DNA of 32,000 nt from the NCBI RefSeq assembly GCF_000015025.1, contig NC_008578.1:900001-932000 (forward strand), read 5' to 3'. The notes below the pieces were generated by a model that worked only from the letters and a program-made list of their open reading frames with translations, searched no databases and had not been told where the DNA came from. Both the position numbers and the translations under genes were made by a program. The DNA comes from Acidothermus cellulolyticus 11B. GTDB taxonomy: Bacteria > Actinomycetota > Actinomycetes > Acidothermales > Acidothermaceae. The stretch's first letter is position 1, and each line of letters opens with the position of its first letter. This document shows positions 1 through 16,267 of the stretch, piece after piece.

Positions 1-2
1 TG

Positions 3-179
3 CAGGAGGTGCTCTCCGGGCTGGTCAAGGTCGCCGTGAAAACCGAGGATCTGCGCGCAGCCCTTCTCAAGAGTGGCTCACCGGCGACGCCGGCGGACAT
101 GAAGAAACGCTTCGATGAATACCTTGACGAACTCACCAAGGGCCATGAGCCTGGCAAGGTGAGAATTGTGCTGGAGTGA
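3..179 (+). CDS. 3' end (58 codons) of an upstream CDS cut by the window edge; product unknown (by context possibly the preceding gene of the BREX-like operon)
   Basis: Frame 3 is open from the window edge to TGA at 177-179 (...[24 protein letters not shown]). The stop overlaps the GTG start of the next gene (GTGA at 176-179), which suggests translational coupling. It is absent from the ORF track because it has no start codon in the window. Confidence 0.5.
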
Positions 180-1585
180 CCGTGAATCGGAATGAACTCG
201 AACAAATCGCCCAACAGGGTGAATCCGAAACCATCGAGTTCAAGAAATCCACAGCACAGATCCGGCGGGCGATGGAAACACTCTGCGGCATGCTCAACGG
301 CCATGGCGGCCGTGTGCTGTTCGGTATTACACCCCAGGGGCAGATCGTTGGGCAGACGGTTTCTGACAAAACTTTACGGGAGGTAGTCGATCAGCCGAGG
401 CGTTTCGAACCTCCGGGCACCGTTGCCCAAACACGCATTGACCTCGGTGATGACAAGGAGTTGCTGGTGCTGGAAGCACAGCCGGATCCTACCCGGCGCC
501 CCTATATCTTTGACGGTCGGCCTTATCAGCGGGTGGGTTCCACCACCTCCGTGATGCCCCAGGAAACCTACCACCGGCTTCTGGCAGAACGTCCCGACAG
601 TCGCACCCGCTGGGAAACGCTTCGAGCCGAGGGATATGGTGTGGCCGACCTCGACCAAGAGGAAATCCTGCGCACAGTGCGCCTTGGTGTTGCCGCCGGC
701 CGCTTGCCGGAATCAACGGGCGGCGACATTCCCGATATCCTGCATCGGTTGGAATTGCTCAAGGGCGGTCGTCTGAACAACGCAGCCATCGTTCTATTCG
801 GCACCTGCTTCCTCCCTGACTATCCTCAATGCCAGCTGCGTATGGCCCGCTTCCGTGGGGTGGACAAATCGGAGTTCCTCGACCAGCGCCAGATCGAAGG
901 GCACGCCTTTGCCCTGCTTGACGAGGCCATGCTGTTTTTGCGCCGCCATCTTCCCGTGGCGGGCCGGGTCGTCCCCGGGCTGTTCGAGCGTGAGGACGAG
1001 CCATTGTTTCCGCTGGAGGTCCTGCGTGAGGCGCTGGTCAATGCCTTCTGCCACCGGGACTACACCATCGCAGGCGGGGCGGTCAGCCTGGCCATCTACG
1101 ACGATCGCCTGGAGATTTGGAGCGACGGGACCTTGCCATCCGGTCTCACCCCGGAGGATCTCAAGCGAGACCACACGTCAAAACCGAGCAATCCGTTGAT
1201 CGCCAAGGTGTTCTACCTTCGCGGCGTCATCGAGCGCTGGGGACGCGGGACACAAAAGATCGTCGAGCTGTGTGTCAAGGCTGGGCACCCAGAGCCAGAA
1301 TTCGGCGAGCAGGCCGGTAGCGTCTGGGTGCGCTTCGTACCGAGCGGTTACATTGCCCCGCATCGCGTAGCGCATGACCTTACCGAGCGACAGCGGGAGG
1401 TCCTGCAAATCACTGCTCATCATGGCCCGATCCCTCTTCGAGAGATCATGCAGCAGATGGCAAGCCCGCCGGCCTCCGCTACGGTCCGGGATGATCTCTA
1501 CCACCTGAAGCGTCTGGAATTGGTCGATTCCGCTGGACATGGCCGAGGGGCCGTGTGGCGGCTGCGCAGAGAGGAAAGCTCATGA
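176..1585 (+). CDS. AlbA_2 (Schlafen-type 'divergent AAA') + HATPase_c_4-like + C-terminal winged-HTH protein; putative DNA-binding regulator/sensor
   Basis: 469-aa ORF. The N-terminal '[11 protein letters not shown]' motif is typical of AlbA_2 domains. The central '[14 protein letters not shown]' is typical of the HATPase_c_4-like module of this family. The C-terminal '[10 protein letters not shown]...[10 protein letters not shown]' looks like a wHTH. The GTG start overlaps the upstream stop. Families were recognised from memory. Confidence 0.8.
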
Positions 1586-1591
1586 GCACCG

Positions 1592-1651
1592 GAATAAGCT
1601 GGCATCGGCTGGAGAATAAGCGGGAATGGCCAGCGTATTTCCAGCTTATTC
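1592..1651. promoter_or_regulatory. Inverted repeat / candidate operator or terminator-attenuator between the AlbA_2 gene and the methyltransferase
   Basis: A perfect 11-bp inverted repeat, GAATAAGCTGG (1592-1602) / CCAGCTTATTC (1641-1651). A third 10/11 direct copy, GAATAAGCGGG, lies at 1614-1624. All sit in the only sizeable intergenic gap (1586-1763) of the operon, and this gap is visibly AT-richer. Confidence 0.35.
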
Positions 1652-1763
1652 GCATGAACCATCGGGAAGCCTTTCCATATGGGCATCTTATGGAGAACCC
1701 ATATAAGGCGAAAATAAGTCGGCTCCATTCCGCCCTATCCCTCCCAAGAGGAGCGAAATTCAC

Positions 1764-4742
1764 ATGAACCGGCAAAACAACCTTTTTGAAAACCAGGAGG
1801 CCAAAACCAGGGACCAGGAACCTGTCGAATGCCTTGGCAAGACCTTCGACTCCGACGAGGCGCGGCGGCAGCACTTCCTCCGCCTCTTGCGCGAAGGGCT
1901 GGAGGAACTCCACGCCAAGCTCGGCGGTGTGCCCTTCACCACGGTGGAAGACGCCGTGGAACGGATGAAGTCGGTCGAGAAATGGCCGATGGGAGGTGAG
2001 ACGCGCCTGCGTGAGCTTGCCGAGCGCATGCGCCATGCCGATTCAAGCAAGGACCTGCTCCAGCGCTGGAAGGACGAGGTCGGCTTCCCGCACGGTGAGA
2101 TCGAAGACATCCTGAACCTATCCGATCCGCCCTATTACACGGCGTGCCCGAACCCCTTCATCGCGGACTTCATCAAGCACTACGGCAAGCCATACGACCC
2201 GAACGTGCCTTACAGCAAGGAGCCGTTCGCGGTCGACGTGAGCGTGGGGAAAACGGACCCGCTTTACAAAGCCCATTCGTATCACACCAAGGTACCGCAT
2301 CTGGCCATCGTGCCTTCCATTCTCCACTACACAGAGCCGGGAGACGTGGTCTTGGATGGGTTCTGCGGCTCTGGTATGACGAGCGTCGCGGCACAATGGT
2401 GTAGCTCCGCACCGGAGAGCTACAAGCGTGATGTCGAGGCATCATGGGAGAAGGAAGGCCGGAAGAAGCCCAACTGGGGCCTACGCCGTGTGGTGCTGGG
2501 CGATCTCGCGCCTGCCGCCACCTTCATCGCTGCCAACTACAACTTGCCCTTCGATGTGGATGGATTTGCACGCGCGGCGCGCCAGATCCTCGACGAGGTC
2601 GAGCAGGAGATCGGCTGGATGTACGAGACCCTGCATACCGATGGCAAGACCAAGGGGCGCATCGAATATACAGTCTGGAGCGAAGTGTTCACCTGCTGGG
2701 ACTGCGCGGGCGAGGTGGTGTTTCTGGAGCAGGCCCTGGACCCGGAGACCAAGAAGGTAAGGGAGACCTTCCCTTGCCCCCATTGCGGTGCGGAGCTGAC
2801 AAAGAAGCGGCTGGAGCGCCTCTATGAAACCAAGCTAGACAGGGCGCTGAACACCATCATTCGCATCCCCAAGCGCCAGCCCGCTCTCATCGTCTACAGA
2901 ATTGGCAAGACACGTTACGAGAAGAAGCCGAATCAGACCGATCTTGAAACCCTCTCCAGGGTGGAATCTCTTGCCTGGCCGCATGAGGTTCCGATAGATG
3001 CCTTGCCCTATATGCACATGACCCATGAACGGGCGCGGATGGACAATGCAGGCATCACCCACATCCACCACTTCTTTCTCCCCCGCGCCGCCCACGTCCT
3101 GGCGGCGCTGTGGCGCAAGGCCCAGGCATGGCCGGACAAGCGCAACCGGCACATGTTGTTGTTTTTCGTGGAGCAGGCGATTTGGGGGATGTCCGTTCTG
3201 AATCGTTATTTGCCGACGGCGTTTTCGCAAACAAATCGCCAGTTGACGGGGGTATATTACATTGCATCCCAAATTGCCGAAGTCTCCCCGTCCTACAACC
3301 TTGAAGGAAAGCTCAAGGGTTTGGCGAAGGCCTTTCGAGGGCATCGAACATCATCCGGAAGCGCCATCGTCACCACCGTCACCACCGCACGTCTCGACCT
3401 CCCTGACAACTCTATTGATTACATCTTCACCGACCCGCCCTTCGGCGAGAACATCTATTACGCCGACCTAAATTTCCTGGTGGAGTCCTGGCACCGGGTG
3501 CTGACCAACGCCACCCCCGAAGCCATCGTGGACAAGGCCAAGAAGAAAGGCCTGCCCGAGTACCAGCACCTGATGCGGCAATGCTTCGCAGAGTATTGCC
3601 GAGTACTCAAGCCCGGCCGTTGGATGACGGTCGTTTTCCACAACTCCCGCAACGCCGTCTGGAACGCTATTCAGGAAGCGATACTGGCCGCGGGCTTCGT
3701 GGTGGCCGATGTCCGCACCCTCGACAAGCAACAGGGTTCCTACCGTCAGGTCACCAGCACGGCGGTCAAACAGGACCTGGTCATCTCCGCCTACAAACCC
3801 AACGGGGGCCTTGAGGAAAGGTTCAAGCTGACCGCCGGCACCGAGGAAGGTGTCTGGGACTTCGTCCGCACGCACCTGAGGCAGCTGCCGGTGTTCGTCT
3901 CCAAGGACGGCGAGGCGGAAGTCATCGCAGAGCGGCAGAACTACCTGCTATTCGACCGCATGGTGGCTTTCCATGTCCAGCGGGGCGTGACGGTGCCTCT
4001 CTCCGCGGCGGAGTTCTACGCCGGTCTCGCGCAGCGCTTCTCGGAGCGCGACGGGATGTACTTCCTGCCCGAGCAGGTGGCGGAGTACGACAAGAAGCGC
4101 ATGAAGGTTGGTGAGGTCCTGCCGCTGCAGCTCTTCGTCACCGACGAGGCCTCCGCCATCCAGTGGCTCAAGCAGCAGCTCACCAGGAAGCCGCAGACCT
4201 TCCAGGAGCTTCATCCGCAGTTTCTCAAGGAGATTGGAGGCTGGCAGAAGCACGAGAAGCCGCTCGAGCTGTCCGAGCTGCTGGAACAGAACTTCCTCCG
4301 CTACGACGGCAAGGGTCCGATTCCGAAGCAGATCGTTTCCTGGATGCGTCAGAGCGCGGAGCTTCGGAAGATCATCGATGAGCAGCTTGCGTCTGGACAG
4401 GCTCAAGAGGATGACAGCGGACTCGTGACCCGTGAGCCACGACTCATCGACCGCGCGAAAGCGCGCTGGTACGTCCCGGACCCCAACAAGGCCGGCGACC
4501 TGGAGAAACTCCGCGAGCGGGCCCTGCTGCGCGAGTTCGAGGAGTACCGCGAGTCCAAGCAGAAGCGCCTGAAGGTCTTCCGCCTCGAGGCCGTCCGCGC
4601 CGGCTTCAAGAAGGCATGGCAGGAACGGGACTACGCCACCATCATCGCCGTGGCGCGCAAGATCCCAGAGGACATCCTCCAGGAAGACCCCAAGCTCCTC
4701 ATGTGGTACGACCAGGCGCTTACCCGTTCTGGGGAGGAGTGA
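1764..4742 (+). CDS. Large N6/N4 DNA methyltransferase with internal Zn ribbon (PglXI-like, BREX type 3-type methylase)
   Basis: 992-aa ORF. RBS AAGAGGAG lies about 10 nt upstream of ATG 1764. AdoMet motif I 'VVLDGFCGSGMT' is at aa ~195-206. The CxxC-x23-CxxC motif (CWDC...CPHC) is at aa 311-341. Catalytic motif IV 'IFTDPPFG' is at aa ~554-561, followed by 'ESWHRVLKPGRWMTVVFHN'. There is a long charged helical C-terminal region. Confidence 0.85.
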   Translation: MNRQNNLFENQEAKTRDQEPVECLGKTFDSDEARRQHFLRLLREGLEELHAKLGGVPFTTVEDAVERMKSVEKWPMGGETRLRELAERMRHADSSKDLLQRWKDEVGFPHGEIEDILNLSDPPYYTACPNPFIADFIKHYGKPYDPNVPYSKEPFAVDVSVGKTDPLYKAHSYHTKVPHLAIVPSILHYTEPGDVVLDGFCGSGMTSVAAQWCSSAPESYKRDVEASWEKEGRKKPNWGLRRVVLGDLAPAATFIAANYNLPFDVDGFARAARQILDEVEQEIGWMYETLHTDGKTKGRIEYTVWSEVFTCWDCAGEVVFLEQALDPETKKVRETFPCPHCGAELTKKRLERLYETKLDRALNTIIRIPKRQPALIVYRIGKTRYEKKPNQTDLETLSRVESLAWPHEVPIDALPYMHMTHERARMDNAGITHIHHFFLPRAAHVLAALWRKAQAWPDKRNRHMLLFFVEQAIWGMSVLNRYLPTAFSQTNRQLTGVYYIASQIAEVSPSYNLEGKLKGLAKAFRGHRTSSGSAIVTTVTTARLDLPDNSIDYIFTDPPFGENIYYADLNFLVESWHRVLTNATPEAIVDKAKKKGLPEYQHLMRQCFAEYCRVLKPGRWMTVVFHNSRNAVWNAIQEAILAAGFVVADVRTLDKQQGSYRQVTSTAVKQDLVISAYKPNGGLEERFKLTAGTEEGVWDFVRTHLRQLPVFVSKDGEAEVIAERQNYLLFDRMVAFHVQRGVTVPLSAAEFYAGLAQRFSERDGMYFLPEQVAEYDKKRMKVGEVLPLQLFVTDEASAIQWLKQQLTRKPQTFQELHPQFLKEIGGWQKHEKPLELSELLEQNFLRYDGKGPIPKQIVSWMRQSAELRKIIDEQLASGQAQEDDSGLVTREPRLIDRAKARWYVPDPNKAGDLEKLRERALLREFEEYRESKQKRLKVFRLEAVRAGFKKAWQERDYATIIAVARKIPEDILQEDPKLLMWYDQALTRSGEE

Positions 4743-4745
4743 ACC

Positions 4746-5549
4746 ATGCATTTGCTCTATACGGACGAGGTGAATGTAGACCCCTGCAGTAGTGACTTCT
4801 TCATTTATGGTGGTGTCAGTGTCGATGCCAACCAAGCAGCATCGTTGTCCAGAAGGATCGACCTTCTGCGGCAAGAGCACGGATACGAGCCAGAGGATCT
4901 ATTGAAGTTCAACACCCGCGAGCGGCCCCACACCATTTCTCCCGAGACACATAGGGAGATAAAGAGAAGAGTCATTGAGGAGGCGGCTGCTCATGACGCT
5001 CTCCTGTTCGCTTCGTTTATTCTCCACGGCATCGCCGCGAGTCCGGAGGAAGCGAGACGGAAGGAAATCAATCGGGTGTGTTTTAACTTTGACTGTTTTC
5101 TCCGAGAACGAGATGAATACGGCATCGTCCTGATTGATATGTTCACCGATAACAACTTGCCACAGATATTGAGAGAAAAGTTTTCGATAGGATTGAGTGG
5201 GCTGCCGTATTCGGATCGGTACCGCCTTGAGCGCGTTCTTGGCTTTCATCTTGCGTCAATCGGTTCGTCCAATTTCTCGTCTGTTGTTGATATTGTCTTG
5301 GGTTCCTTGCGGTACGCCGTGAACTGTCTCGACGATCCCAGCCGTCAGGATGTAGTGCGGACGTTGCTAAGTCAGCTTGCTCCGCTCTGTTTGAAAAACG
5401 ACGACGGAAGTATCCGAGAGCTCAGCCTCTTTTTTAGCCCCGTTAGGGTCCGGGTACCCGAGTATTATCAGCAATACCAGAACCTACGGGACTCTCTGAC
5501 TCGAAACGGATTGGGGGGGATAGAGACGCGGCAAGAATGGGGAAAATAG
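4746..5549 (+). CDS. Hypothetical protein, possibly DUF3800-like; low-GC insert inside the operon
   Basis: 267-aa ORF. The ATG lies 3 nt after the methylase stop, and the TAG lies 1 nt before the helicase ATG. The N-terminal 'LLYTDEVN' weakly resembles the 'IYIDESG' start of DUF3800 proteins (from memory). Lines 5041-5100 and 5101-5160 count 47% and 45% GC, against 63% for helicase line 6001-6060. Confidence 0.6.
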   Translation: MHLLYTDEVNVDPCSSDFFIYGGVSVDANQAASLSRRIDLLRQEHGYEPEDLLKFNTRERPHTISPETHREIKRRVIEEAAAHDALLFASFILHGIAASPEEARRKEINRVCFNFDCFLRERDEYGIVLIDMFTDNNLPQILREKFSIGLSGLPYSDRYRLERVLGFHLASIGSSNFSSVVDIVLGSLRYAVNCLDDPSRQDVVRTLLSQLAPLCLKNDDGSIRELSLFFSPVRVRVPEYYQQYQNLRDSLTRNGLGGIETRQEWGK

Positions 5550-5550
5550 G

Positions 5551-8352
5551 ATGGGTGTTGACCACCTAGGCGACTGGTGCTACAGCCCCGAGCACGGGGA
5601 GCTCTGCCGGGTCATCGAGACCCAGACGCTCTGGGGTGAGACCGTCTGCCGTGTCTGGCTGCCGGGCAAGGATGCCGTCGTGCGGGTGCCCGCCGCGCGC
5701 CTCCGGCCCGTGCAGGAGGCAAGTGTCGGCACCGTGGACGGGATCGCTTATCTCGCCGCGGCGGCGCGGGTCGCCGATGCGCTGACCCAGGACGTCCTGC
5801 TTGCGCCTATCGAATCGTCCGTCATCCCGCTGCCGCATCAGATTCGAGCGCTCTCCAGGGCCGTTTCCAACGACCGCGTGCGCTATCTCCTGGCGGACGA
5901 GGTGGGCCTCGGCAAGACCATCGAGGCAGGTCTTATCATGCGGGAGCTCAAGCTCCGGGGCCTGGTGAGGCGGACGCTGGTCATCGCCCCGAAGGGCCTG
6001 GTGACCCAATGGGTGGCGGAAATGCGCACCCACTTCGGGGAGGAGTTCCGCCTGCTCATCCCGAGCGACTTCTCCGCCTACCGCCGCATCGCCCAGGAAG
6101 ACAACCTCTGGCAGAGCCATCCACAGGTGGTCTGCCCCATGGACTCTGTGAAGCCCCTGGACGGCCGGCGCGGCTGGTCGAGGGAACAGGTGGCCGAGTA
6201 CAACCGGGAGCGCTTCGAAGACCTGATCTCCGCCGGCTGGGACCTGGTCATCGTCGACGAGGCCCATCGCCTGGGTGGAAGCACGGACCAGGTGGCCCGC
6301 TACAAGCTCGGCCAGGGGCTGGCCGAGGCCGCGCCCTACCTGCTCCTGCTCTCCGCCACACCGCACCAGGGCAAGACCGACGCTTTCCACCGCCTGATCT
6401 CCCTGGTCGACGCGCAGGCCTTCCCCGACGTGAGCAGCGTGACAAAGGAGCGGGTACAACCGTACGTCATCCGCACGGAGAAGCGCCGCGCCATCGACGC
6501 GGAGGGCAAGCCGCTTTTCAAACCCCGGCGCACGGAGCTTGCGCCCGTCTCCTGGGAGGATCGCCACCGGGATCAACGGCTGCTCTACGAGGCGGTCACC
6601 GAATACGTGCGCGAAGGCTACAACCAGGCCATGCGCGAGAAGCGCAGCTACATCGGATTCCTCATGATCCTCATGCAGCGCCTGGTGGTCTCCAGCACCC
6701 GCGCCATCCGCACCACCCTGGAGCGGCGCCTCGAAGCGCTCGAGGCCCCACAGGAACAGCTCACACTCTTCCCCATGGTCTCCGAGGAGGAGTGGGCCGA
6801 CCTGGACGGCCAGGAGCAGATGGACACGCTACTCAAGACCCGCCTTGAGGCCCTGACAAATGAAAGGGCCGAGGTGAAGCTGCTCCTGGAAGCGGCCAAG
6901 CGCTGCGAAAGCCAGGGCCCGGACGCCAAGGCCGAAGCGCTCCTGGACTGGATCTACCGTCTCCAGGCCGAGAAAGGCGACCCGGATCTTAAGGTGCTGG
7001 TGTTCACCGAGTTCGTGCCGACCCAGGAGATGTTGTACGAGTTCCTGACCGAGCGCGGCTTCGAGGTGGTATGCCTCAACGGCTCCATGGACTTGGAGGA
7101 GCGCAAGCGGGTCCAGGACACCTTCGCCAAGGATGCCCGCATCCTCATCTCGACGGACGCCGGTGGTGAGGGCCTCAACCTCCAGTTTTGCCATGTGGTC
7201 ATCAACTACGACATTCCCTGGAACCCGATGCGCCTGGAACAACGCATCGGCCGGGTGGACCGCATAGGCCAGACCCACACGGTGCGCGCCATCAACTTCG
7301 TGTTTGAAGACTCGGTCGAACACCGTGTCTGCGAGGTCCTGGAGGAGAAACTGGCGGTCATCTTCGAAGAGTTCGGCATCGACAAGACCGGTGACGTGCT
7401 CGACTCTGCCCAGGCGGGCCAGATTTTCGACGATCTGTATGTGGAAGCCATCCTCAATCCCGATGTGGTGGAAACCAAGGTCGACGAGGTCCTGAAAAGC
7501 ATTCAGGAGCAGGCCCGCGAGTCTCGGCAAAGCGTTTCCGTGCTCGGCTCTGTCGAAGACCTAGATCCTGGAGAGGCACAGCGACTGCTGGCCCACCCGC
7601 TCCCGCATTGGGTCGAGCGCATGACGGTAAGCTACCTGCAGGCTCACGGCGGCAAGGCCGAGCGGAAGAACGGCGCCTGGGATCTCACCTGGCCGGGCGG
7701 CGAGCAACTGAGCAATGTCGTCTTCACCAGCAAGGAGGCTGCAGAGAGGCCTCTGAGTCGCCACGTGACGCTGGAAAATCCCAAGGTGCGTGGGCTAGCC
7801 ATGCGCCTTCCTCCCTTTGCCCCGGGACAACCGGTCCCGGTCATCACGCTCCCTGGCCTTGCCCAAGAGATCATGGGTTTCTGGTCGCTCTGGCGAATCT
7901 CGATCTCGACCGCCGACTGGAATCGTCGCCGGATCATGCCTTTGTTCCTGGCCGACGACGGTCGGGTGTTTGCGCCGACTGCCCGGCACATCTGGGATCA
8001 ACTGGTGGTAACGAAGCCCACGATCCTGCGGCATTTGGACGTCGAGACCTCGCATCAAGCCTTCGAGCAACTCCTGGAGCCGGCGGAACGACAGGGGAAG
8101 ACGATCTACGACGAGCTGGTGCAGGCTCACCGGGAGCGTCTTGCTCGGGAACGTGAGAAGGGCGAGTACGCCTTCGCTGCGCGACGCAGAGCCATCGAGC
8201 GCATCGGGCTGCCCCAGGTCCGTAACCATCGCCTGAGTCTCTTGGAGCAGGAGGAAGAACGCTTCCACGAACAACTCGAGCGCCGGGCCCAGATTCTGCC
8301 GGAAATGGCGCCCCTGCTTCTCGTCCGCGTGGAGGGAGGCACCCATGGGTAG
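5551..8352 (+). CDS. SNF2-family (RapA/HepA-like) helicase, BrxHII-like
   Basis: 933-aa ORF. Motif I is 'LLADEVGLGKTIEAG', motif II 'VIVDEAHRLGG' and motif III 'LLLSATPHQGK'. The C-terminal helicase lobe has 'ILISTDAGGEGLNLQ' and 'WNPMRLEQRIGRVDRIGQ'. About 290 aa of C-terminal extension have unknown function. Confidence 0.9.
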   Translation: MGVDHLGDWCYSPEHGELCRVIETQTLWGETVCRVWLPGKDAVVRVPAARLRPVQEASVGTVDGIAYLAAAARVADALTQDVLLAPIESSVIPLPHQIRALSRAVSNDRVRYLLADEVGLGKTIEAGLIMRELKLRGLVRRTLVIAPKGLVTQWVAEMRTHFGEEFRLLIPSDFSAYRRIAQEDNLWQSHPQVVCPMDSVKPLDGRRGWSREQVAEYNRERFEDLISAGWDLVIVDEAHRLGGSTDQVARYKLGQGLAEAAPYLLLLSATPHQGKTDAFHRLISLVDAQAFPDVSSVTKERVQPYVIRTEKRRAIDAEGKPLFKPRRTELAPVSWEDRHRDQRLLYEAVTEYVREGYNQAMREKRSYIGFLMILMQRLVVSSTRAIRTTLERRLEALEAPQEQLTLFPMVSEEEWADLDGQEQMDTLLKTRLEALTNERAEVKLLLEAAKRCESQGPDAKAEALLDWIYRLQAEKGDPDLKVLVFTEFVPTQEMLYEFLTERGFEVVCLNGSMDLEERKRVQDTFAKDARILISTDAGGEGLNLQFCHVVINYDIPWNPMRLEQRIGRVDRIGQTHTVRAINFVFEDSVEHRVCEVLEEKLAVIFEEFGIDKTGDVLDSAQAGQIFDDLYVEAILNPDVVETKVDEVLKSIQEQARESRQSVSVLGSVEDLDPGEAQRLLAHPLPHWVERMTVSYLQAHGGKAERKNGAWDLTWPGGEQLSNVVFTSKEAAERPLSRHVTLENPKVRGLAMRLPPFAPGQPVPVITLPGLAQEIMGFWSLWRISISTADWNRRRIMPLFLADDGRVFAPTARHIWDQLVVTKPTILRHLDVETSHQAFEQLLEPAERQGKTIYDELVQAHRERLAREREKGEYAFAARRRAIERIGLPQVRNHRLSLLEQEEERFHEQLERRAQILPEMAPLLLVRVEGGTHG

Positions 8353-10378
8353 TTGGCGTGACCAAATCCTGAGTGAGTTCACACCCCAGGTCGCCCGGCT
8401 TACCCTGGTCGCGGATCCGGACGGCCTGCTCCTTGAAGAAGGTGTGCTCGAAGGGATCCGGGAACGGGGCTTTGAGCTGATCCCGTTCGAGGATCATGTC
8501 GCCTTTCGCTATGCCTACGAATCCAAGTTCCGCTCCCGCTGGGACCGTCGTGAGGAAACCGATCTGGTGGTGGTGCTGAGATCGCCGTCGAGCGATCTCG
8601 ATGCCTTGCCCTACGACCTGCTGCAGGCTGGCCGCAAGCTCTCTTTCAACCTGGGCGATCTCTTCCCGAATCTCAGCTACCCCGTGGTCGCGGTACTCGA
8701 CCGGGCTGATCTCGACGTCTTGTTCGATGCGCAATTGAGGCACGCGCCGGGGCCGCTCGGCGACAACGCGACGAAGGAGTTCGTCCTTCGTCATGTGTTC
8801 GAGATCGCGCCGGAACTCATCAAGCAGCCATCTGACCTACTCCGGGTCTTGCTGCGTCGCCATTACCGCGGACAACGAATCCCCCACATCCTCGATGAGC
8901 GTTTTATCCAGGTGCTTCGTCAAAACGGCCTATTTGAGGATTGGCCTCTGGAAGCCATCATTCCGGACGAGCAAGCATTCTTTGCGTTCCTGCAGGAGCG
9001 TTGGCCGGTGTTCCTGGATTCGCTCGCGAATTCAAACGATGATGCCGTCTACGCGGGTGCGGCGGTCTACGGCTTCAAGTCCCCAGGACCTGCGCTCTTG
9101 CCTTTCGACCACGACGATGTCCGCGTCTACCTCGACAACCTGTTCTTCGAAGGATTGCTCCAGCCAGTTCTTCACGAGCAAGCGCAGACGCTTGCACAGT
9201 CTTGGGCAGTGTGTGGCGTGAGAATCTCGCCAGAGGAAGATCGCCTACGCCGCGTGAGGGGTCTTCTCGATTTTATCGAGAAGACGCTTCCCACAGTAGA
9301 CTCGCGGTACGCGGAGTGGCTTGAGTTTGCTCCTCGTTGGTCCGAACTCGTTGCGCTGACGTTGGACTCAGACCTGCCTACGCGCGACGCACAGGCAAGC
9401 GCTACGCTACCACCCGGATACGGGGAGCGTTTGGAGGCATTGAAAGCTCAGATCGATGTCACGTTCACCGAATGGATCGTGAAGCGCTACGCAAGTCTCA
9501 TCAACCTTCCGCCACTGCCGCCGGTGATGCTGCATCACATCCCTCCCTTCCTCGCTAGAAACCTTGACAATGCCCACGATGCAAAAGTCGCTCTTTTGCT
9601 CATGGACGGTCTTGCCTTGGACCAGTGGGTTGTCTTGCGTCGTGTACTTGAGGAGTCAGATGCGACGTTGCGGTTCCGCGACAACGTCGTATTCGCTTGG
9701 ATTCCGACTATTACTTCCGTTTCCCGACAAGCCACGTTTGCCGGTAAGCCGCCCATCTATTTCCCAACGAGTATCCTTACCACGACCAAAGAGTCGGAAC
9801 TTTGGACTCAGTTCTGGGTTGGGGAAGGGTTAACGAAACATGAGGTGGGCTACATGAAGGGACTCGGAGACGGAAGCTTGGACGGGCTTGCCGAGCTCCT
9901 GAGCCGACCCAGGTTACGCGTTGTCGGATTGGTTATCAACAAGGTCGATCGAATCATGCACGGCATGGAGCTAGGATCGGCGGGCATGCACAACCAAGTT
10001 CGACTATGGGCGAGGCAGGGATTCATGTGTGATCTCCTTCGTTTGCTCCATGACCGTGGATTTCAGGTTTATCTCACCTCAGACCACGGCAACATCGAGT
10101 CGGAGGGCATAGGTGAACCTTCCGAAGGATCGGTCGCGAAGGAAGCTGGCGAGCGTGTTCGGGTCTATTCGGATCTCAAGCTCAGGGCCCAGGTCAAGGA
10201 GCGGTTCCGAGGGGCAGTAGAGTGGCCGCCTTTCGGCCTACCGGAGGACTACCTCGCCCTTATTGCTCCTAACCGAGCCGCCTTCGTACAGAGAGGGAAA
10301 ACCAGGGTCGCTCATGGCGGTATCAGTGTCGAAGAGCTTCTTGTCCCCTTTGTCGAAATTGAGAGACAAGATCGATGA
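8345..10378 (+). CDS. pglZ: PglZ-domain (alkaline-phosphatase superfamily) protein
   Basis: 677-aa ORF. Its ATG overlaps the helicase stop (ATGGGTAG). The C-terminal half carries PglZ-type metal/catalytic motifs: 'LLLMDGLALDQW', 'IPTITSVSRQATFAGK', 'NKVDRIMHG' and 'YLTSDHGNIES'. Confidence 0.8.
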   Translation: MGSWRDQILSEFTPQVARLTLVADPDGLLLEEGVLEGIRERGFELIPFEDHVAFRYAYESKFRSRWDRREETDLVVVLRSPSSDLDALPYDLLQAGRKLSFNLGDLFPNLSYPVVAVLDRADLDVLFDAQLRHAPGPLGDNATKEFVLRHVFEIAPELIKQPSDLLRVLLRRHYRGQRIPHILDERFIQVLRQNGLFEDWPLEAIIPDEQAFFAFLQERWPVFLDSLANSNDDAVYAGAAVYGFKSPGPALLPFDHDDVRVYLDNLFFEGLLQPVLHEQAQTLAQSWAVCGVRISPEEDRLRRVRGLLDFIEKTLPTVDSRYAEWLEFAPRWSELVALTLDSDLPTRDAQASATLPPGYGERLEALKAQIDVTFTEWIVKRYASLINLPPLPPVMLHHIPPFLARNLDNAHDAKVALLLMDGLALDQWVVLRRVLEESDATLRFRDNVVFAWIPTITSVSRQATFAGKPPIYFPTSILTTTKESELWTQFWVGEGLTKHEVGYMKGLGDGSLDGLAELLSRPRLRVVGLVINKVDRIMHGMELGSAGMHNQVRLWARQGFMCDLLRLLHDRGFQVYLTSDHGNIESEGIGEPSEGSVAKEAGERVRVYSDLKLRAQVKERFRGAVEWPPFGLPEDYLALIAPNRAAFVQRGKTRVAHGGISVEELLVPFVEIERQDR

Positions 10379-11157
10379 TGAAGCACCCGGTGCAGATCGG
10401 CTTCAGCCAACGCGTGCGTCTCGAATGGTACGAGAGCACGGCAAACCTCGTACTGGCTGGAAATGATGAAGTGTCGATCTACCACATTCTCGATGAGATG
10501 CTCAAAGAGACGTTGTCGGTCGTTGGAAATGCGCGACGAGGTACTCGAGAGAAAGTCATCACCATTCTCATGAAGATCTGGGTTCGACCCCCACGTCACC
10601 TTGAAGATATGAAGCGGGAAGGACTCCAGTTCCTTCAGCGCTTGTCACGCCGGGATCGCATCACAGTCCACTGGGGTATGACCATGGCGGTCTATCCCTT
10701 CTGGGGAACCGTGGCAACTTACGTTGGGCGACTGCTCAGACTTCAGGGTACGGCCACTGCTGGCCAGGTGCAGCGGCGCGTTCGGGAGCAATTTGGCGAA
10801 CGCAGCACGGTCACGCGAGCAACGCAACGGGTGCTGCGGAGCTTTATTGATTGGGGAGTGCTACAGGAGACGTCGGAGCGAGGCAGTTATGCGGCTGGAT
10901 CGGTGCTGGACGTGACTCAGCGGGACGTCATCGCGTGGCTGGTCGAAGCAGCCTTACACGCCCATCAAGTCCGCGCTGCACCGCTCGGAACTGTTCTTGA
11001 GTCCACAAGCCTGTTTCCGTTCCGCTTTAGTTACCTCCCGCCGATGCGCTTAGTTGCTGAATCGGACCGTCTTGATCTGCTGCGGTACGATTTAAATCAA
11101 GAATTAATCACGTCCCGCTCGAATGCTCCGTCCGTGGCGCGCAGCGGAGGTATATGA
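10375..11157 (+). CDS. 260-aa hypothetical protein, BrxA-like (DUF1819) by position and weak resemblance
   Basis: ATGA overlap with the pglZ stop. It is the last gene of the operon, the slot occupied by brxA in type 3 BREX. 'GERSTVTRATQRVLRSFIDWGVLQE' is reminiscent of the DUF1819 C-terminal region (weak, from memory). Confidence 0.45.
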   Translation: MMKHPVQIGFSQRVRLEWYESTANLVLAGNDEVSIYHILDEMLKETLSVVGNARRGTREKVITILMKIWVRPPRHLEDMKREGLQFLQRLSRRDRITVHWGMTMAVYPFWGTVATYVGRLLRLQGTATAGQVQRRVREQFGERSTVTRATQRVLRSFIDWGVLQETSERGSYAAGSVLDVTQRDVIAWLVEAALHAHQVRAAPLGTVLESTSLFPFRFSYLPPMRLVAESDRLDLLRYDLNQELITSRSNAPSVARSGGI

Positions 11158-11457
11158 GGACTGGAGGCGTGCCTGCGAGTGAGTTGCGTCGTCGAGCGAC
11201 GAATAAGGAGCGGATCCGCAAATTGCGGATTAAGTCGCGCCGTGATTCTGCTTCGGCAACCTCTATACAGTAATTCGTGACCCAAGCGGGTGCTTGTCGC
11301 GCTGTTGGACACATATCGTCTGCACTCGCCGGAACTCGACGAGAAGAATGCCTCTGTGCTTGTAGCTGATGGGCGATACAGCTTTACTCCTAGCTATGCA
11401 TGCCCTGCTGGAGACAGTCTGCGGTGAGGACGTTATCGTCGGAATTCGCCTTAGTGA

Positions 11458-11721
11458 GCTTTATGGCGGCTCTCACATCTTTGGTGGCTACCACCTTATC
11501 ACCCCGTAGTTGACGGGGTGGATCCGCGGGTGGCGCCGGAGCATTACGTGTCGCACACCTACCGGGCGGCCCAGGCGGATGGGTGGGTGCGGCTTACCGT
11601 GCACTGGGAGGCGGTGTTCACCACCGGTGGGATCACCTACCCGATCGACCCGATCGACGTCACCACCACCATCCACTACCCCGTCCACCAAGCCCGCGCC
11701 GTCCTCGTCACCACTCCGTAA
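11458..11721 (+). pseudogene. Possible 3' fragment of a disrupted high-GC gene at the island/chromosome junction
   Basis: The frame is open from 11458. The only start listed is GTG 11518 (67 aa: ...VSHTYRAAQADGWVRLTVHWEAVFTTGGITYPIDPIDVTTTIHYPVHQARAVLVTTP*). The sequence looks protein-like and matches host-like GC. It has no RBS and no upstream ATG, and it abuts a lower-GC segment. Confidence 0.3.
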
Positions 11722-12179
11722 ACGCATTTATCCGGAATTTGCGTATTCAACCGGAGAAGACAGGGTGTGGTCGGCCGCTTCCGCGAAATGAGAAGTCGCG
11801 GCAATGCGAATGTAGCGGAAAATCCTGAATGAGTGTTTTCGTCCCTGGCCGTCGATAAAATAGGCACCTACCCATGACCGGGTCGACGCGCGTGTCGGTG
11901 TGGACTGCCGGGTCGGCGCGGACCAGTGGTAGGAGCGGCTGGCCGGGGCTGCGCTCAATGCCAGCGGCGTTCGGGTGGCCGGATCGGCAGCAAGGGCCGG
12001 ACAGGCATCGACGACCGGTCAGGTATGCCTCGCCGGGCGCTGCCAACCAGCCGCGCCAGCACGGCCCCGGCCAGCCCCGCCGCCGCGCCGACCCGGCCAC
12101 GACCCCCCGGGGCCGCGCACGACCGGGCCACACGCCCCGCCGGAGAGACACGGACCGCAGGATGGAGGAGCCAGCGGCA

Positions 12180-13517
12180 ATGAACCGGATCACCTTCCTT
12201 CACACGGCTGACTGGCAGCTCGGCAAACCATTCGCCCAGGTCGCCGATCCCGACAAGCGGTCCGCGATCCGAAAGGCGCGGATCGACGTCCTCGACCGTA
12301 TCAGCGAAATCGCAGCCCGTGAAGGTGCGGCCTTCGTCGTGGTCGCCGGCGACCTCTTCGACTCCACGACCGTGGACAAACCGACGGTCTCCGCCGCCTG
12401 CGCCGCCATTGGACGGTTTCCCGTACCGGTCCTCGTGATACCCGGCAACCACGACCACGGTGGCCCCGGCTCCATCTGGCAGCAACCCTTCTTTCAACGG
12501 GAATGCGCGCAGCTGGCCCCGAACCTGACCGTGCTGCTCGAACCCGCCCCCGTCCTGCTCGAGCAGGCTGTCATCCTGCCCTGCCCGTTGCTGCACCGCG
12601 CGGTATCCGGCGATCCGTCTGCGTGGCTGCACGACAGCACGACCTTCGACGCGCTGCCGCCGGATCTGCCGCGGATCGTGGTCGCACACGGCTCGACCCA
12701 ACGTTTTGTCGGCGGTTGGGCTGACGATGACGAGGAAGACCCCGTCACCAATTTCATCGATCTCGACCGGTTGGAGCGCATGCCCATCGACTACGTCGCC
12801 TTAGGTGACTGGCACGGGACGCTGCAGGTCGGCGTCCGCTCCTGGTACGCCGGCACACCCGAACCCGACCGCTTCCCGAAAGGCGACGACCAGGACCCCG
12901 GCAACGTTCTCGTGGTTCGCGTGGCCCGCGAAGAATTACCGGAGGTCCAGCCGATCCGCACCGCGCGGCTTTCCTGGCGGCGAATGACGTGTGCCTTCAC
13001 CGACGACGCGTCGCTGGACACCGTCGCAGACGACATCGGCCGGACCGTCGGAGACCGGGCCGGCGAAACGCTGCTCCGACTCGCGCTGAGCGGTTCGCTG
13101 GGCATTGAGGCGCACACCCGGCTTGAGCAGCTGCTCGATTCGTGGCAGGCCCGTCTCGCCTGGCTCAAAATAAGCGGGGACGTGCGCGTTGCCCCAACGG
13201 ACGCCGAAATCGCCGAGCTGGCAAGGCGTCCCGCCGATCCGCTGATCGCCGGTGTCGCAGCCGCCCTCATCGCTCGGGCTACCCGGGCCGCTCTTCCGGA
13301 CGTCGCCCACGACGCTCTGGCGACCGAGGTCCCGGCCGCCGAGCCCGCCGCCCCGCCCGCCCCGGACGCCACCCCGCCCGCCAGCCCGGACGACGACTCC
13401 GCCATCCCGGCCGCCGAAGCCGTCACCCCGCCCACCAGCCCGGACGACGACGCGCACGTGGCCCAGCTTGCGCTGCGTTTGCTCTACGAGGCCTGCCGTC
13501 AGGAGGCGACGATATGA
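12180..13517 (+). CDS. Calcineurin-like metallophosphoesterase, SbcD/YhaO-like DNA exonuclease subunit
   Basis: The true start is taken as ATG 12180 (MNRITFLHTADWQLGKPF), with GGAGGAG upstream; ATG 12162 is an alternative. Phosphoesterase motifs are 'HTADWQLG', 'VVVAGDLFD', 'VIPGNHD' and 'VVAHG'. The Pro/Ala/Asp-rich C-terminal tail contains an internal duplication. The ATGA overlap with the next gene lies at 13514-13517. Confidence 0.85.
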   Translation: MNRITFLHTADWQLGKPFAQVADPDKRSAIRKARIDVLDRISEIAAREGAAFVVVAGDLFDSTTVDKPTVSAACAAIGRFPVPVLVIPGNHDHGGPGSIWQQPFFQRECAQLAPNLTVLLEPAPVLLEQAVILPCPLLHRAVSGDPSAWLHDSTTFDALPPDLPRIVVAHGSTQRFVGGWADDDEEDPVTNFIDLDRLERMPIDYVALGDWHGTLQVGVRSWYAGTPEPDRFPKGDDQDPGNVLVVRVAREELPEVQPIRTARLSWRRMTCAFTDDASLDTVADDIGRTVGDRAGETLLRLALSGSLGIEAHTRLEQLLDSWQARLAWLKISGDVRVAPTDAEIAELARRPADPLIAGVAAALIARATRAALPDVAHDALATEVPAAEPAAPPAPDATPPASPDDDSAIPAAEAVTPPTSPDDDAHVAQLALRLLYEACRQEATI

Positions 13518-16267
13518 GACTCGACTCCGCTACCGTCCGCCGCTATCGGCTGCACCGGGACCTCACGGTCGAATTCGACCCGTCGCGCACGCTGATTACC
13601 GGAGATAACGAGACCGGCAAGAGCACGCTGGTCGAGGCGATTCACCGCGCCCTCTTCCTCAAGGCCACTGTCACCGGCAGCGTCCTCGCGGAGATGCGGT
13701 CTCACCTGTACGGCAGCTATCCGGAGGTGGAACTCCGGTTCACCGTCGGCGGTGACACGTACCAGCTGCGCAAACGCTTCGCCGGCCAGCAAGGCACCGC
13801 AACCTTGAGCCAGGTCGGCGGCCGAACCTGGCACGGCGAAGAAGCCGAGGAACGGCTTGCCGAGCTGCTCGGCGTCGAACCCACCGGCGGCGGCCGGGGC
13901 ATCGATAAACGGCTCAACGCCCAGTGGGCGCATCTGTGGGTCTGGCAGGGACAAGGCGGCGAGGATCCCGCCCAATACACGGCCGCCCACAACCAGCAAC
14001 TCCTTCAGCAGCTGCAGCGCGTCGGCGGTGCGGTGGCCATGCAATCTGCCCTGGACGGCCGGGTCGCTGAGCATTTCGCGCAGCTGTACGACCGCCTGTT
14101 CACCCAGACCGGAAAGGAAAGAGCCGGGTCAGACCTGGCCGCCGCCAAAACCGCTTATGAGCAGGCCCGGGAGCGGTTCGAGCAGGCGGCGCTGCGCCTT
14201 GAGCGCGTCGAAACCGCGATGAGTGACTTCGAGCACGCCGAGGAAACCATCCGCGAGGCCGCCGCCAGCCGGGAGGACGCCCAGCGGCAACTCCAGGCGG
14301 TCAACGAAAAATTGGAGAAACTCACCAGACTGCGCGACCAGGAGCAGGCGCAGGCCCGTGAATTGGCCGAAATCCAGGGCCGGTTGGCGGCCGTTGAAGA
14401 GACCGACCGGAAAATCCGGGAGTACCAGGACCAGGCCCGAAAGCTGCAGGACGACGCCGTCCCCTTGCACGCCAAGCTGGCGGACGCCGACCAGCGCTTG
14501 CGCGATGTACGGGACCAGGTAGGCCGCGCGCAGAAAATCCGTGACGAGGCGGCGGAAAAAGCCCGGCAGGCCCGCAGAATCCGGGATTTGGCCGTTGCGT
14601 ATGAACGGATGCTGGACGCCGAGCAGCAGCATCAGGCTCTCGCCCTGCGGGTGGCGGAGATCGAACGCCACGAGCAGACCATCCGGGAACGCGGCAGCCG
14701 GCTTGCCCAGCTCCCGGCCATTGACCGAAACGACCTGGAGGAGCTTCAGGAGCGCGATCGCGAGCGCGGCGAGGCCGACGCCCGTCTGACCGCAGCTGCG
14801 CCGGAAATTGAACTGCTCGAATCCTCCCTGCCCGTGCGGCTCGGCGACCGGGCGCTGTCGCCCGGGGAGCCGGTGAGAGTTCTAGAAACCACCGAATTGA
14901 CAGCCGGCGACCTGCGGGTGCGCATTCACCCCGGCCGTGGGGAGAATCTCGCGTCCCTTCGGGCCCGGATCGCAGAACTCGGTCGCGAGATCCAGGAAAA
15001 GCTGGACCGATGGGGGCTGCCGGGGATCGCCGAAGCCGCTGCGGTTGTCGTGCAACGGCAAGAGATTCAGCAGGAGATCGACCGGCTGCAGGCGGCGCGT
15101 GAGGCGCTGAATCCGGAATCGACCCGGGCGCAATTCCAGGAGGCCGAGCAGCGCCTGATCGCCGCCCGGGCCGAACGGGACCGGCTGCAGCCAACCGTGG
15201 GCGACGGGTACGCCGTCCCGGGAAACCTTGAGGCCGCCCGGCACCAGGTTGACGAGGCACAACAGCGCGTGGATGAGGCCGAAGCCGGCGAGCAGCACGC
15301 CGCCGGCGTCCTGGAGACCCTGACCGCGGAGTTGGCGCAACTCACCGCGGATCGGGAGAGCGTCGAGCAATCGCTCCGGGAGCTCCAACGCCAACAACAC
15401 GAAGCGGACGCCGCAATTCGCGTCCTCGTCGAACAAGCCGGCGACGAGACCCAGCGCCGCAGCCACCTCCAGGAATTGCACGAGGCGGTTCAGACCCTGG
15501 AAAAACGCCTCGAAGAAACCCGTGCTGCGATCGCCGAATTACAACCCGACCTTCTCGACGCGGATCGGGAACGCCTCGAGCGTGTCCTCCACAACGCCCA
15601 GGAAAGCATCCGGCTGTCGGAACAGCGGCGGGCCGCAGCCCACGCGCTCCTGCAGACCGACGGCAGCACGGATCCCCGCGCCGAATACGCCCACGCCCGG
15701 GCGCAGCTGGCTGAGGCCGATGAGCGGCGGAAGGCCGCGGAGCGTTACGCAGCCGCCGTCCGGCTGGTGCACGAACTCTTCGCCGCTCAGCAAAAACAGC
15801 TTGCCGAGCATTTCTCGCGGCCGCTGGCTGAAAAAATCACCACCTACCTTCAGCCCGTGTTCGGACCCCGCGTGCAGGCGGTGGCGAAATTCGACGGCAA
15901 CGATTTCAAAGGCGTCGAGCTGGTTCGCCCGGCCCTGGACGCCGCGCTGCCGTTCGACGCGCTCAGCGGCGGGACACGCGAACAGGTGGCCGCCGCGGTA
16001 CGCCTGGCGATCGCCGAACTGCTGGCGGCCGACCATGACGGCACGTTGCCCGTCGTCTTCGACGATGCCTTCGCCAATTCCGACCCGCACCGCATCGCGC
16101 TGCTGCAGCGCACCCTCGACCTCGGCGCCCGCCGCGGCCTCCAGATCATCGTTCTGACCTGCCACGGCACCTCCTATTCCGCGCTGGGGGCCCGGCACAT
16201 CGAGCTCGAATCACCGAGAGCACCTGCGGATTCCCGCCCGGTGTCGGTGACCGATCCTGCGCAGTAG
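13514..16267 (+). CDS. SMC/SbcC/YhaN-like AAA ATPase with long coiled coil
   Basis: The start is ATG 13514 (MRLDSATVRRYRLHRDL...). Walker A is 'TGDNETGKSTLVEAI'. About 600 aa of Ala/Glu/Arg/Gln-rich coiled coil follow. The ABC signature is 'LSGGTREQVAAAVRLA' and Walker B is 'LPVVFDDAFANSD'. The 5' extension in the track (from 13142) overlaps the upstream gene and is Arg/Pro junk. Confidence 0.85.
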   Translation: MRLDSATVRRYRLHRDLTVEFDPSRTLITGDNETGKSTLVEAIHRALFLKATVTGSVLAEMRSHLYGSYPEVELRFTVGGDTYQLRKRFAGQQGTATLSQVGGRTWHGEEAEERLAELLGVEPTGGGRGIDKRLNAQWAHLWVWQGQGGEDPAQYTAAHNQQLLQQLQRVGGAVAMQSALDGRVAEHFAQLYDRLFTQTGKERAGSDLAAAKTAYEQARERFEQAALRLERVETAMSDFEHAEETIREAAASREDAQRQLQAVNEKLEKLTRLRDQEQAQARELAEIQGRLAAVEETDRKIREYQDQARKLQDDAVPLHAKLADADQRLRDVRDQVGRAQKIRDEAAEKARQARRIRDLAVAYERMLDAEQQHQALALRVAEIERHEQTIRERGSRLAQLPAIDRNDLEELQERDRERGEADARLTAAAPEIELLESSLPVRLGDRALSPGEPVRVLETTELTAGDLRVRIHPGRGENLASLRARIAELGREIQEKLDRWGLPGIAEAAAVVVQRQEIQQEIDRLQAAREALNPESTRAQFQEAEQRLIAARAERDRLQPTVGDGYAVPGNLEAARHQVDEAQQRVDEAEAGEQHAAGVLETLTAELAQLTADRESVEQSLRELQRQQHEADAAIRVLVEQAGDETQRRSHLQELHEAVQTLEKRLEETRAAIAELQPDLLDADRERLERVLHNAQESIRLSEQRRAAAHALLQTDGSTDPRAEYAHARAQLAEADERRKAAERYAAAVRLVHELFAAQQKQLAEHFSRPLAEKITTYLQPVFGPRVQAVAKFDGNDFKGVELVRPALDAALPFDALSGGTREQVAAAVRLAIAELLAADHDGTLPVVFDDAFANSDPHRIALLQRTLDLGARRGLQIIVLTCHGTSYSALGARHIELESPRAPADSRPVSVTDPAQ

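Follow-up and report, generated by a model that had tools for sequence, protein, structure and literature searches.

Results

A complete type 3 BREX operon carrying two additional genes

The first 11,157 nucleotides of a 32,000-nucleotide stretch of the Acidothermus cellulolyticus 11B genome (NC_008578.1, positions 900,001 to 932,000; the whole of this stretch is referred to here as the window) carry genes of a type 3 bacteriophage exclusion (BREX) locus, together with two genes that flank the methyltransferase gene pglXI and form the subject of this study. The first of the two (cargo gene 1) encodes a Schlafen-type protein and the second (cargo gene 2) a 267-amino-acid protein related to DUF3800. 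A preliminary description had recognized seven consecutive plus-strand frames – a fragment at 3–179, followed by 176–1585, 1764–4742, 4746–5549, 5551–8352, 8345–10378 and 10375–11157 – and all seven are present with exactly these coordinates; it was likewise correct in placing two of the encoded proteins outside the six-gene core set. The core set of type 3 BREX reportedly goes back to Goldfarb et al. in 2015.

The core proteins were identified by profile searches. The frame at 3–179 (plus strand, like the other frames of the operon within the window) comprises the last 58 codons of brxC: its product matches Pfam DUF6079 (4.6e-18) and the PADLOC BrxC model PDLC02482 (4.1e-20), aligning in both cases to the extreme C-terminus of the model. 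The remainder of the gene was found on a public contig of 16.4 kb (L001), recovered through an exact match of the 267-residue protein, which is 100% identical to the window over positions 1–11571 and reaches 4.8 kb upstream, the window beginning at its position 4801. The upstream part encodes a 60-residue HTH_17 protein, BrxF and a full-length BrxC of 1243 residues. Gene brxF (L001 734–1210), whose product is small and iSTAND/AAA-like, matches PDLC02496 over positions 1–158 of 158 (326 bits), and the DUF6079-type brxC/PglY ATPase gene (L001 1248–4979) matches the PADLOC BrxC model with 2164 bits. The preliminary description had placed brxF and brxC upstream of the window; both indeed lie on the identical contig, but brxC runs into the window, where it ends as the fragment at 3–179 that had been left without a name.

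Downstream, pglXI (brxXI; 1764–4742) encodes an N6-adenine DNA methyltransferase that matches PDLC02541 over its full length (1495 bits, residues 3–991) and has 100% identity with a protein of A. cellulolyticus 11B in a protein search. It bears the motifs FCGSGMT (residue 200) and TDPPFG (residue 556), between which lies an internal target-recognition insert with a four-cysteine zinc finger, CWDC-x23-CPHC (CxxC-x23-CxxC, residues 311–341). Gene brxHII (5551–8352) encodes an SNF2/RapA-like helicase with a full-length match to the BrxHI/BrxHII model PDLC02500 (1685 bits) and with Pfam matches to SNF2-rel_dom and Helicase_C, while the NCBIfam models DrmD and RapA match only below cut-off; its motifs are DEVGLGKT at 116, DEAH at 236, SAT at 268 and QRIGRVDRIGQ at 564. 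The pglZ gene (8345–10378; MDGLALDQW at 420, TSDHGN at 578) is of the BREX-3 type, scoring 919.5 bits against NCBIfam NF033449 BREX_PglZ_3 (cut-off 250), 1090.7 bits against PDLC02558 and 96.5 bits against Pfam PglZ; the remaining BREX PglZ subtype models reach at most 41.5 bits. The last gene, brxA (type 3 form; 10375–11157), matches the BrxA model PDLC02444 over residues 1–250 of 251 model positions (388 bits). A Pfam scan that included DUF1819 returned no match to 10375–11157, and the BrxA call comes solely from the PADLOC model.

These full-length, high-scoring matches, far beyond chance, bear out the methylase, SNF2 helicase and PglZ identities that had been proposed from motifs, every one of which is present at a single position in the expected protein, and the PADLOC and NCBIfam models agree with the order pglXI–brxHII–pglZ–brxA that had been assigned to type 3 BREX. 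Among the families singled out beforehand for profile searches, PglZ, SNF2/Helicase_C, AlbA_2 and HATPase_c_4 all match, whereas DUF1819 does not and DUF3800 remains below threshold. The full order – HTH_17, brxF, brxC, the Schlafen gene, pglXI, the DUF3800-like gene, brxHII, pglZ, brxA – is that of a complete type 3 BREX locus, with all six core genes in canonical sequence; positions 1–11157 hold its 3′ two-thirds.

The HTH_17 gene (L001 510–692) lies directly 5′ of brxF and has a PADLOC mad1-like match (2.8e-11). Of 55 type 3 loci in a survey described below, at least 16 have a homologue at this place, as do two close relatives, L173 and L174; the terms HTH_17 and MerR were not found in a recent survey of BREX (PMC12839542). 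The gene may regulate type 3 BREX, a role for which it has not been listed.

The junctions between the frames, all six of which match the earlier account, are tight with a single exception. The end of brxC and cargo gene 1 share a GTGA overlap (176–179); pglXI and cargo gene 2 are separated by 3 nt (4742/4746, TGA ACC ATG) and cargo gene 2 and brxHII by 1 nt (5550); brxHII and pglZ overlap by 8 nt (8345–8352), and pglZ and brxA through ATGA (10375–10378). By itself, this spacing suggests a transcript shared by cargo and core genes. The exception is the 178-nt gap between cargo gene 1 and pglXI (1586–1763), the sole sizeable intergenic gap of the operon; L173, the closest relative, has 68 nt here. 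Neither an Rfam match nor a promoter- or terminator-like site above shuffle expectation was found in the gap, which could hold an internal pglXI promoter. A scan of positions 1–12000 gave no promoter-like and five terminator-like sites, both below shuffle expectation, a result that is uninformative for an actinobacterial operon.

In composition the operon departs from its surroundings, the GC content of individual genes in 1–11157 being 0.51–0.65 as against 0.66 for the remainder of the window. The strongest outlier is the gene for the 267-residue protein, whose low GC content, already remarked upon in the preliminary description, is confirmed: GC is 0.511, with 0.586 at third codon positions (GC3), compared to 0.605 and 0.797 for pglXI and 0.647 and 0.828 for brxHII.

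The junctions flanking pglXI are accessory-gene hotspots

A critical issue is whether the two additional genes set this locus apart. We aligned 20 PglXI homologues, collected 80 PglXI-anchored loci from contigs representing one genome per species, and mapped the nine proteins of the window's locus onto them, counting a junction as occupied if it held more than 500 bp of extra DNA. At least 594 type 3 loci matched, of which these are the best 80, and the frequencies given here are estimates. The brxC–pglXI junction (slot 1) was occupied in 46 of 67 scorable loci (69%) and the pglXI–brxHII junction (slot 2) in 28 of 55 (51%). The brxF–brxC junction was occupied in none of 57, pglZ–brxA in none of 54, and brxHII–pglZ in a single locus of 49, which is rearranged. 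In type 3 BREX the two junctions flanking pglXI are thus accessory-gene hotspots, and those elsewhere in the operon are essentially never occupied. The view that the additional genes render the locus unusual does not survive this comparison: they sit in slots that are mostly occupied across the survey, and decoration is the normal state of type 3 loci. Rakesh & Krishnan (NAR 2026, PMC12839542) have described auxiliary and backup nucleases lodged among the BREX core genes of at least 4363 taxa; the phenomenon was therefore already known qualitatively, and counts for each junction sharpen the picture.

The occupants of both slots are typical defence genes. Besides the window's own gene, slot 1 contains 22 open reading frames (ORFs) with HATPase_c_4, 18 with SLFN_AlbA_2 and 17 with a Fic-like_C winged helix-turn-helix (wHTH) by Pfam; OLD-type ATPases, YhcG/DUF1016, GmrSD, DUF4276, HerA and SIR2 are among its further contents. 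Slot 2 holds OLD-type ABC ATPases (12–14 ORFs), DUF3696, HerA, SIR2, PLD, parts of cyclic-oligonucleotide-based anti-phage signalling systems (CBASS), a kinase, a patatin and a few Schlafens. In 10 of the 80 loci (L008, L010–L013, L023, L040, L049, L061 and L078) PglXI and PglZ occur without a BrxHII homologue, in agreement with a published figure of BrxHII in approximately 77% of type 3 systems.

Comparison with close relatives shows what varies and what does not. In L173 the core is nearly that of the window (BrxC 93%, PglXI 86% and BrxHII 92% identical) and the Schlafen gene of slot 1 is kept at 72% identity; slot 2, however, holds a gene for a 646-residue HATPase_c_4 protein instead of the DUF3800-like gene. 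In a second relative, L088 (238–7178, compared to window 1764–8352), the DUF3800-like protein is 93% and BrxHII 92% identical, but PglXI only 63%, which suggests from sequence that methylase (specificity) alleles are swapped between otherwise near-identical type 3 loci. The two relatives are examples of cargo changing on a near-constant BREX scaffold, and both additional genes are probably exchangeable in this way.

Two of the relatives also carry genes elsewhere. At L173 17713–21478 a Lactamase_B gene lies in brxHII–pglZ and a GIY-YIG gene in pglZ–brxA, junctions that are normally empty. The cargo of L174 (Dissulfurirhabdus thermomarina) includes 23S_rRNA_IVP, YopA-like and PDDEXK_3 genes; within 9615–18174 the PDDEXK_3 gene is found in brxHII–pglZ, and two small 23S_rRNA_IVP-family genes flank pglXI.

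Cargo gene 1 is a known BREX companion

Cargo gene 1 (176–1585, plus strand; gene callers prefer a GTG start at 182 rather than 176) encodes a protein with a Schlafen (AlbA_2) RNase domain, a HATPase_c_4 domain and a putative C-terminal wHTH. The match to SLFN_AlbA_2 (PF04326; residues 16–127) reaches 62.7 bits (cut-off 25.3), and that to the histidine-kinase-like HATPase_c_4 (PF13749; residues 300–387) 84.8 bits (cut-off 26). The C-terminus gives a weak match to the Penicillinase_R wHTH (residues 402–464; 19.7 bits, cut-off 22.6) and no match to Fic-like_C. The catalytic motif – defined for Schlafens as Ex4(E/D)xK (PMC13056530) – is intact in the form Ex4ExK (ESETIEFK, residues 16–23). A sequence search of the PDB found a sole match, the uncharacterised structural-genomics entry 3lmm, and a PHROGs match carries the family name 'DNA helicase', reflecting old annotation.

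An iterated local profile placed homologues in slot 1 of 24 of 67 loci (36%) and in slot 2 of four; the N-terminal motif is kept by 17 of the slot-1 homologues, and the class is the commonest occupant of slot 1. The class is covered in the literature: Schlafen-HisKinase-HTH proteins constitute the second commonest prokaryotic Schlafen architecture (19.2%; Nat Microbiol 2026, PMC13056530) and are a BREX-linked backup effector class present in at least 1017 taxa (PMC12839542). Cargo gene 1 shares with this class the N-terminal Slfn/AlbA_2 domain and Ex4ExK motif, the central HATPase_c_4 and a position between BREX core genes, and its C-terminus may be a wHTH as in the class. Judged by its sequence it is an already known BREX companion, and nothing substantive distinguishes it from the published class.

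Cargo gene 2 encodes a divergent DUF3800 protein with a predicted RNase H2-like fold

Cargo gene 2 (4746–5549, plus strand) is less easily placed. Its 267-residue product has one Pfam match, to DUF3800 (PF12686), and this is weak: 17.2 bits, below the cut-off of 21, with an E value of 0.0085. The assignment is strengthened by the family as a whole, for PF12686 is matched at E≤0.01 by 36 of 59 aligned members (best 2.2e-6), with no competing family. A homology search recovered 123 relatives, nearly all metagenomic and approximately 265–270 residues long, and of 1.84 billion cluster representatives searched with a profile only 582 matched at E≤1e-3. By sequence the family appears to be a small, single-domain, divergent subfamily of DUF3800. 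A PDB sequence search found no solved relative, and a PHROGs search of the 267-residue protein found no match.

An AlphaFold2 model built from the family alignment is of high confidence (predicted local distance difference test score 92.3; predicted template modelling score 0.90). Its top 13 matches in the PDB are all RNase HII/H2 (probability 0.84–1.0, template modelling (TM) score 0.31–0.44), and the best viral match, in BFVD, is a phage protein annotated as DUF3800 (E 1.1e-8, TM 0.63/0.68). Eight residues – D7, E8, N10, N109, D131, D135, H168 and D182 – are invariant or nearly so among 59 members, down to 36% identity. D7 and E8, which at least 90% of the 59 retain, form a DE motif where strand 1 ends; D131 ends strand 4 and D182 lies in a helix. 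The model thus predicts an RNase H2-like fold of the DUF3800 kind with a putative DEDD active site composed of D7, E8, D131 and D182. In layout, and in layout only, these residues resemble the DEDD arrangement of RNase HII from archaea (D7, E8, D105 and D135 in the Thermococcus enzyme).

DUF3800 proteins have been described as having an RNase H2-like fold with DE and QxxD motifs and as effectors of type VII retrons, the type VII forms lacking the Q (PMC7736814). In cargo gene 2 the D of the C-terminal QxxD (D182) is invariant while the position of the Q is occupied by S179. Genes encoding DUF3800 fused to tetratricopeptide repeats (TPR) adjoin Cas12a2 and Cas12a3 (PMC10910872, PMC13594972), and Csx32 of a Cas13 kinase operon contains DUF3800 (bioRxiv 10.64898/2026.08.25.746378); DUF3800 genes recur beside immune nucleases that cut tRNA (Cas12a3, the Cas13 kinase operon). 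In addition, eleven unexplained RNA motifs, DUF3800-I to -XI, neighbour DUF3800 genes (Weinberg 2017). No such structured RNA was seen at the A. cellulolyticus locus, where a search of window positions 1–12000 gave no Rfam match at E≤1 save a chance snoRNA, nor was there a match at gathering score near seven stand-alone homologues.

The slot of cargo gene 2, between pglXI and brxHII, is also that of a gene described elsewhere in type 3 BREX, bxaP. The two are not homologous: the Pfam scan gave no DUF4145 match to the 267-residue protein, which excludes it as a relative of BxaP, the slot being all that they share.

The DUF3800-like family within and outside BREX

No homologue of cargo gene 2 was detected in any of the 80 surveyed type 3 loci (tblastn, E<1e-5). 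A metagenome scan with the family alignment yielded a further set of 80 loci. Members at least 82% identical (L088, L089, L090 and L108) directly adjoin pglXI and/or brxHII: L088 alone shows both flanks, L089 and L090 have brxHII downstream, and L108 has pglXI upstream. At 69% identity the member P0011 (L168) lies between pglXI and brxHII, starting 3 nt after the pglXI stop and with a DUF6119 gene inserted downstream. Two members at 63% follow: P0013 (L170) lies between pglXI and brxHII, with an unannotated 230-residue gene upstream and a PDDEXK_3 gene downstream, and P0015 (L171, Dissulfurimicrobium) is immediately upstream of brxHII on a contig that ends before any pglXI. Members of 60% identity or less are all outside BREX and solitary, from which we conclude that the gene is able to stand alone. 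Their neighbours include phage integrases (seven cases), restriction-modification (RM) subunits, ABC-3C and Pycsar parts, HNH and VapE; some are found among plain housekeeping genes with no defence neighbour (L007, L172).

A neighbour-joining tree of 73 members groups the seven BREX-embedded sequences in a clade of their own. The simplest account is that slot 2 captured a solitary, mobile DUF3800-like gene once, and that the gene was then retained and exchanged by recombination between type 3 loci. Strict co-occurrence with the Schlafen gene was considered and rejected, since slot 1 of L168 holds DUF6978 and DUF1828 and no Schlafen.

Setting of the island and its downstream neighbours

The BREX operon fits a horizontally acquired island, on account of its lower GC content and of a tRNA-like sequence upstream that hints at tRNA-adjacent insertion. 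This sequence (L001 1–72) lies approximately 440 bp 5′ of the first gene and scores 38.7 bits against the Rfam tRNA model; it has several mismatched pairs and was not called by ARAGORN. A comparison of L001 1–800 with window 11100–12100 for att-like direct repeats gave chance 8–10-mers only, with no matching repeat 3′ of brxA. The closest PglXI relatives (80–86% identity) include those of the thermophilic, Deltaproteobacteria-like Deferrisoma and Dissulfurirhabdus.

Directly 3′ of the island, at 11874–16267, is a pair of SbcD-like (Metallophos) and SbcC-like (AAA_23/SMC_N) genes of host-like GC content (0.68–0.70). The SbcC-like ATPase has weak LmuB-type PADLOC matches only (68.7 bits), and a proline/alanine-rich repeat of 21/33 nt occupies 13330–13436, where the two frames overlap. 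Two ORFs of 547 residues, starting at 11874 and 17849, were considered as insertion sequence copies and rejected: they encode the Metallophos (SbcD-like) and a GGDEF-EAL protein. Further downstream there is a tRNA-Met gene (21140–21214) whose last 45 nt at the 3′ end recur, 98% identical, 1.3 kb beyond it at 22494–22538. The pair looks like attL/attR sites bounding a small integrated remnant; no PADLOC match was obtained for the ORFs in between.

Discussion

The locus at the start of the window corresponds to type 3 BREX as otherwise known in its six core genes and their order, in the methyltransferase insert with its four-cysteine zinc finger and in the SNF2/RapA-like BrxHII. It differs from the bare core set in the two cargo genes flanking pglXI, which is the majority state in our survey, and in the HTH_17 gene preceding brxF. 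What requires explanation is the relationship between the cargo genes and the system that houses them.

We consider it likely that the locus is a standard type 3 BREX to which are joined two co-transcribed, exchangeable genes for second-line nucleases that do not need BREX for their function. From what is known of the families, PglXI would methylate a motif in host DNA, and BrxF, BrxC, BrxHII, PglZ and BrxA would block replication of phage DNA that lacks this methylation. Each cargo would most likely be a nuclease effector in its own right, a second line of abortive-infection type rather than a part of the BREX machine. In cargo gene 1 a Schlafen RNase would be controlled by the histidine-kinase-like ATPase and putative wHTH fused to it and, by analogy with characterised Schlafens, would cleave tRNA. 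Cargo gene 2 would supply a DUF3800 nuclease of RNase H2 fold, whose substrate might plausibly be an RNA:DNA hybrid or structured RNA.

There is precedent for the independence of the cargo. BxaP, the product of a rare gene in the pglXI–brxHII slot, defends E. coli, apparently through abortive infection, also when neither BREX nor type I RM is present (PMC10799925). With cargo gene 2 it has in common that it is a rare single gene between pglXI and brxHII (Nat Commun 2024, PMC10799925); it differs in being composed of a DUF4145/HEPN-like and a HEAT-like region, as opposed to the DUF3800 RNase H2 fold. A broader parallel is provided by PARIS and OLD-family modules within BREX and type I RM, which embody the same concept – an abortive-infection module nested as a second layer in an operon for direct immunity. 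Those modules are made of unrelated proteins, and for neither cargo gene is an anti-restriction trigger known.

Several observations weigh against independent, defensive cargo. In tests against a phage panel in E. coli, Schlafens fused to HisKinase gave no protection, whereas DUF262 and Ig-like fusions did (PMC13056530). No biochemical or defence activity of DUF3800 is reported in the retron, Cas12a or Cas13 papers. The slot frequencies, furthermore, are the estimates of a sample. Finally, even at 63% identity the BREX-embedded DUF3800-like clade keeps its place just 5′ of brxHII – and 3′ of pglXI on contigs that include that gene – and its retention could reflect functional integration with BREX rather than independence.

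This last point is the starting position of the strongest alternative, namely that the cargo genes are integrated, BREX-dependent parts: the DUF3800-like nuclease, translationally coupled to pglXI, would supply or reinforce the restriction nuclease step, and the Schlafen protein would sense for or regulate the operon in the manner of BrxR instead of being an independent toxin. The monophyly and constant position of the embedded clade speak for such integration, as does the start 3 nt behind the pglXI stop in both the window and L168. The Schlafen protein, for its part, has a putative DNA-binding wHTH at its end, is still 72% identical in L173 and belongs to a class present in slot 1 of more than a third of loci. 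However, the majority of type 3 loci have neither gene, and many slots are empty; the near-identical core of L173 carries a different gene in slot 2; L168, which has the DUF3800-like gene, has no Schlafen in slot 1; relatives of 60% identity or less live outside BREX altogether; and BxaP, from the same slot, functions without the system. We therefore regard integration as unlikely.

A second alternative denies the genes a role in defence and treats them as passengers, either selfish (addiction-type) genes or decaying insertions, tolerated and transcribed beside pglXI. Here the anomalous composition of the 267-residue protein's gene is relevant, its GC3 of 0.586 against approximately 0.8 for its neighbours suggesting a separate origin; so too are the relatives among housekeeping genes in L007 and L172 and the failure of tested Schlafen-HisKinase fusions to defend. 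Yet both ORFs are intact with conserved catalytic motifs, and the putative active site of the DUF3800-like protein persists across the 59 aligned members. The slots, moreover, are filled almost wholly by recognised defence families, and DUF3800 itself recurs in type VII retrons, with Cas12a2 and Cas12a3 and in the Cas13 kinase operon. The passenger explanation appears to us improbable.

There is also a more specific form of cooperation to be considered. The DUF3800 clade may have been recruited once and kept because it acts together with other components, degrading RNA:DNA hybrids or RNA fragments of stalled phage replication, or working downstream of tRNA-cleaving effectors. The DUF3800-like gene does share its operon with a Schlafen gene in the window; L168, on the other hand, bears the DUF3800-like gene without a Schlafen, and for this reason we give the idea little weight. 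Were it true it would constitute the first function for DUF3800 and a new effector layer for BREX.

The last possibility is a PglZ-based system distinct from type 3 BREX, which the preliminary description had offered as the alternative to a decorated locus; despite eight genes in place of six and a last gene with no Pfam DUF1819 match it can be dismissed with near certainty: six full-length core genes stand in canonical order, the subtype models score far above their cut-offs, and the extra genes vary between near-identical loci. Of the two options it was the decorated type 3 system that proved right.

Independent second-line cargo thus being the reading that we favour, it is worth stating where the novelty lies. 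We found no publication linking DUF3800 to BREX; DUF3800 is not mentioned in the BREX survey PMC12839542, and the terms DUF3800, RNase H and Acidothermus are absent from its searchable text supplements. Nor did we find a paper that pairs Acidothermus cellulolyticus with BREX. The core system and the Schlafen companion were already known, and it is the gene for the 267-residue protein that is a new cargo in a known hotspot. Compared to DUF3800 proteins of other loci its product shares an RNase H2-like fold, an N-terminal DE and a place as accessory gene of a defence system – and, with the type VII retron protein, a C-terminal D lacking the Q of QxxD – but it differs in standing alone at 267 residues with no TPR or reverse transcriptase partner, in belonging to a subfamily below the Pfam threshold, in having BREX as its host and in the lack of a structured RNA among our search results.

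The finding leaves the understanding of BREX unchanged. Its value is more particular. We found no published mechanistic study of type 3 BREX, and the locus described here, complete and from a cultured, sequenced thermophile, is a possible test case for the type. The logic of guilt by embedding, which led to BxaP in the pglXI–brxHII slot, makes the 267-residue protein a reasonable candidate for a single-gene defence effector, and it offers a compact, high-confidence model for a DUF that recurs in the accessory gene sets of retrons and CRISPR systems.

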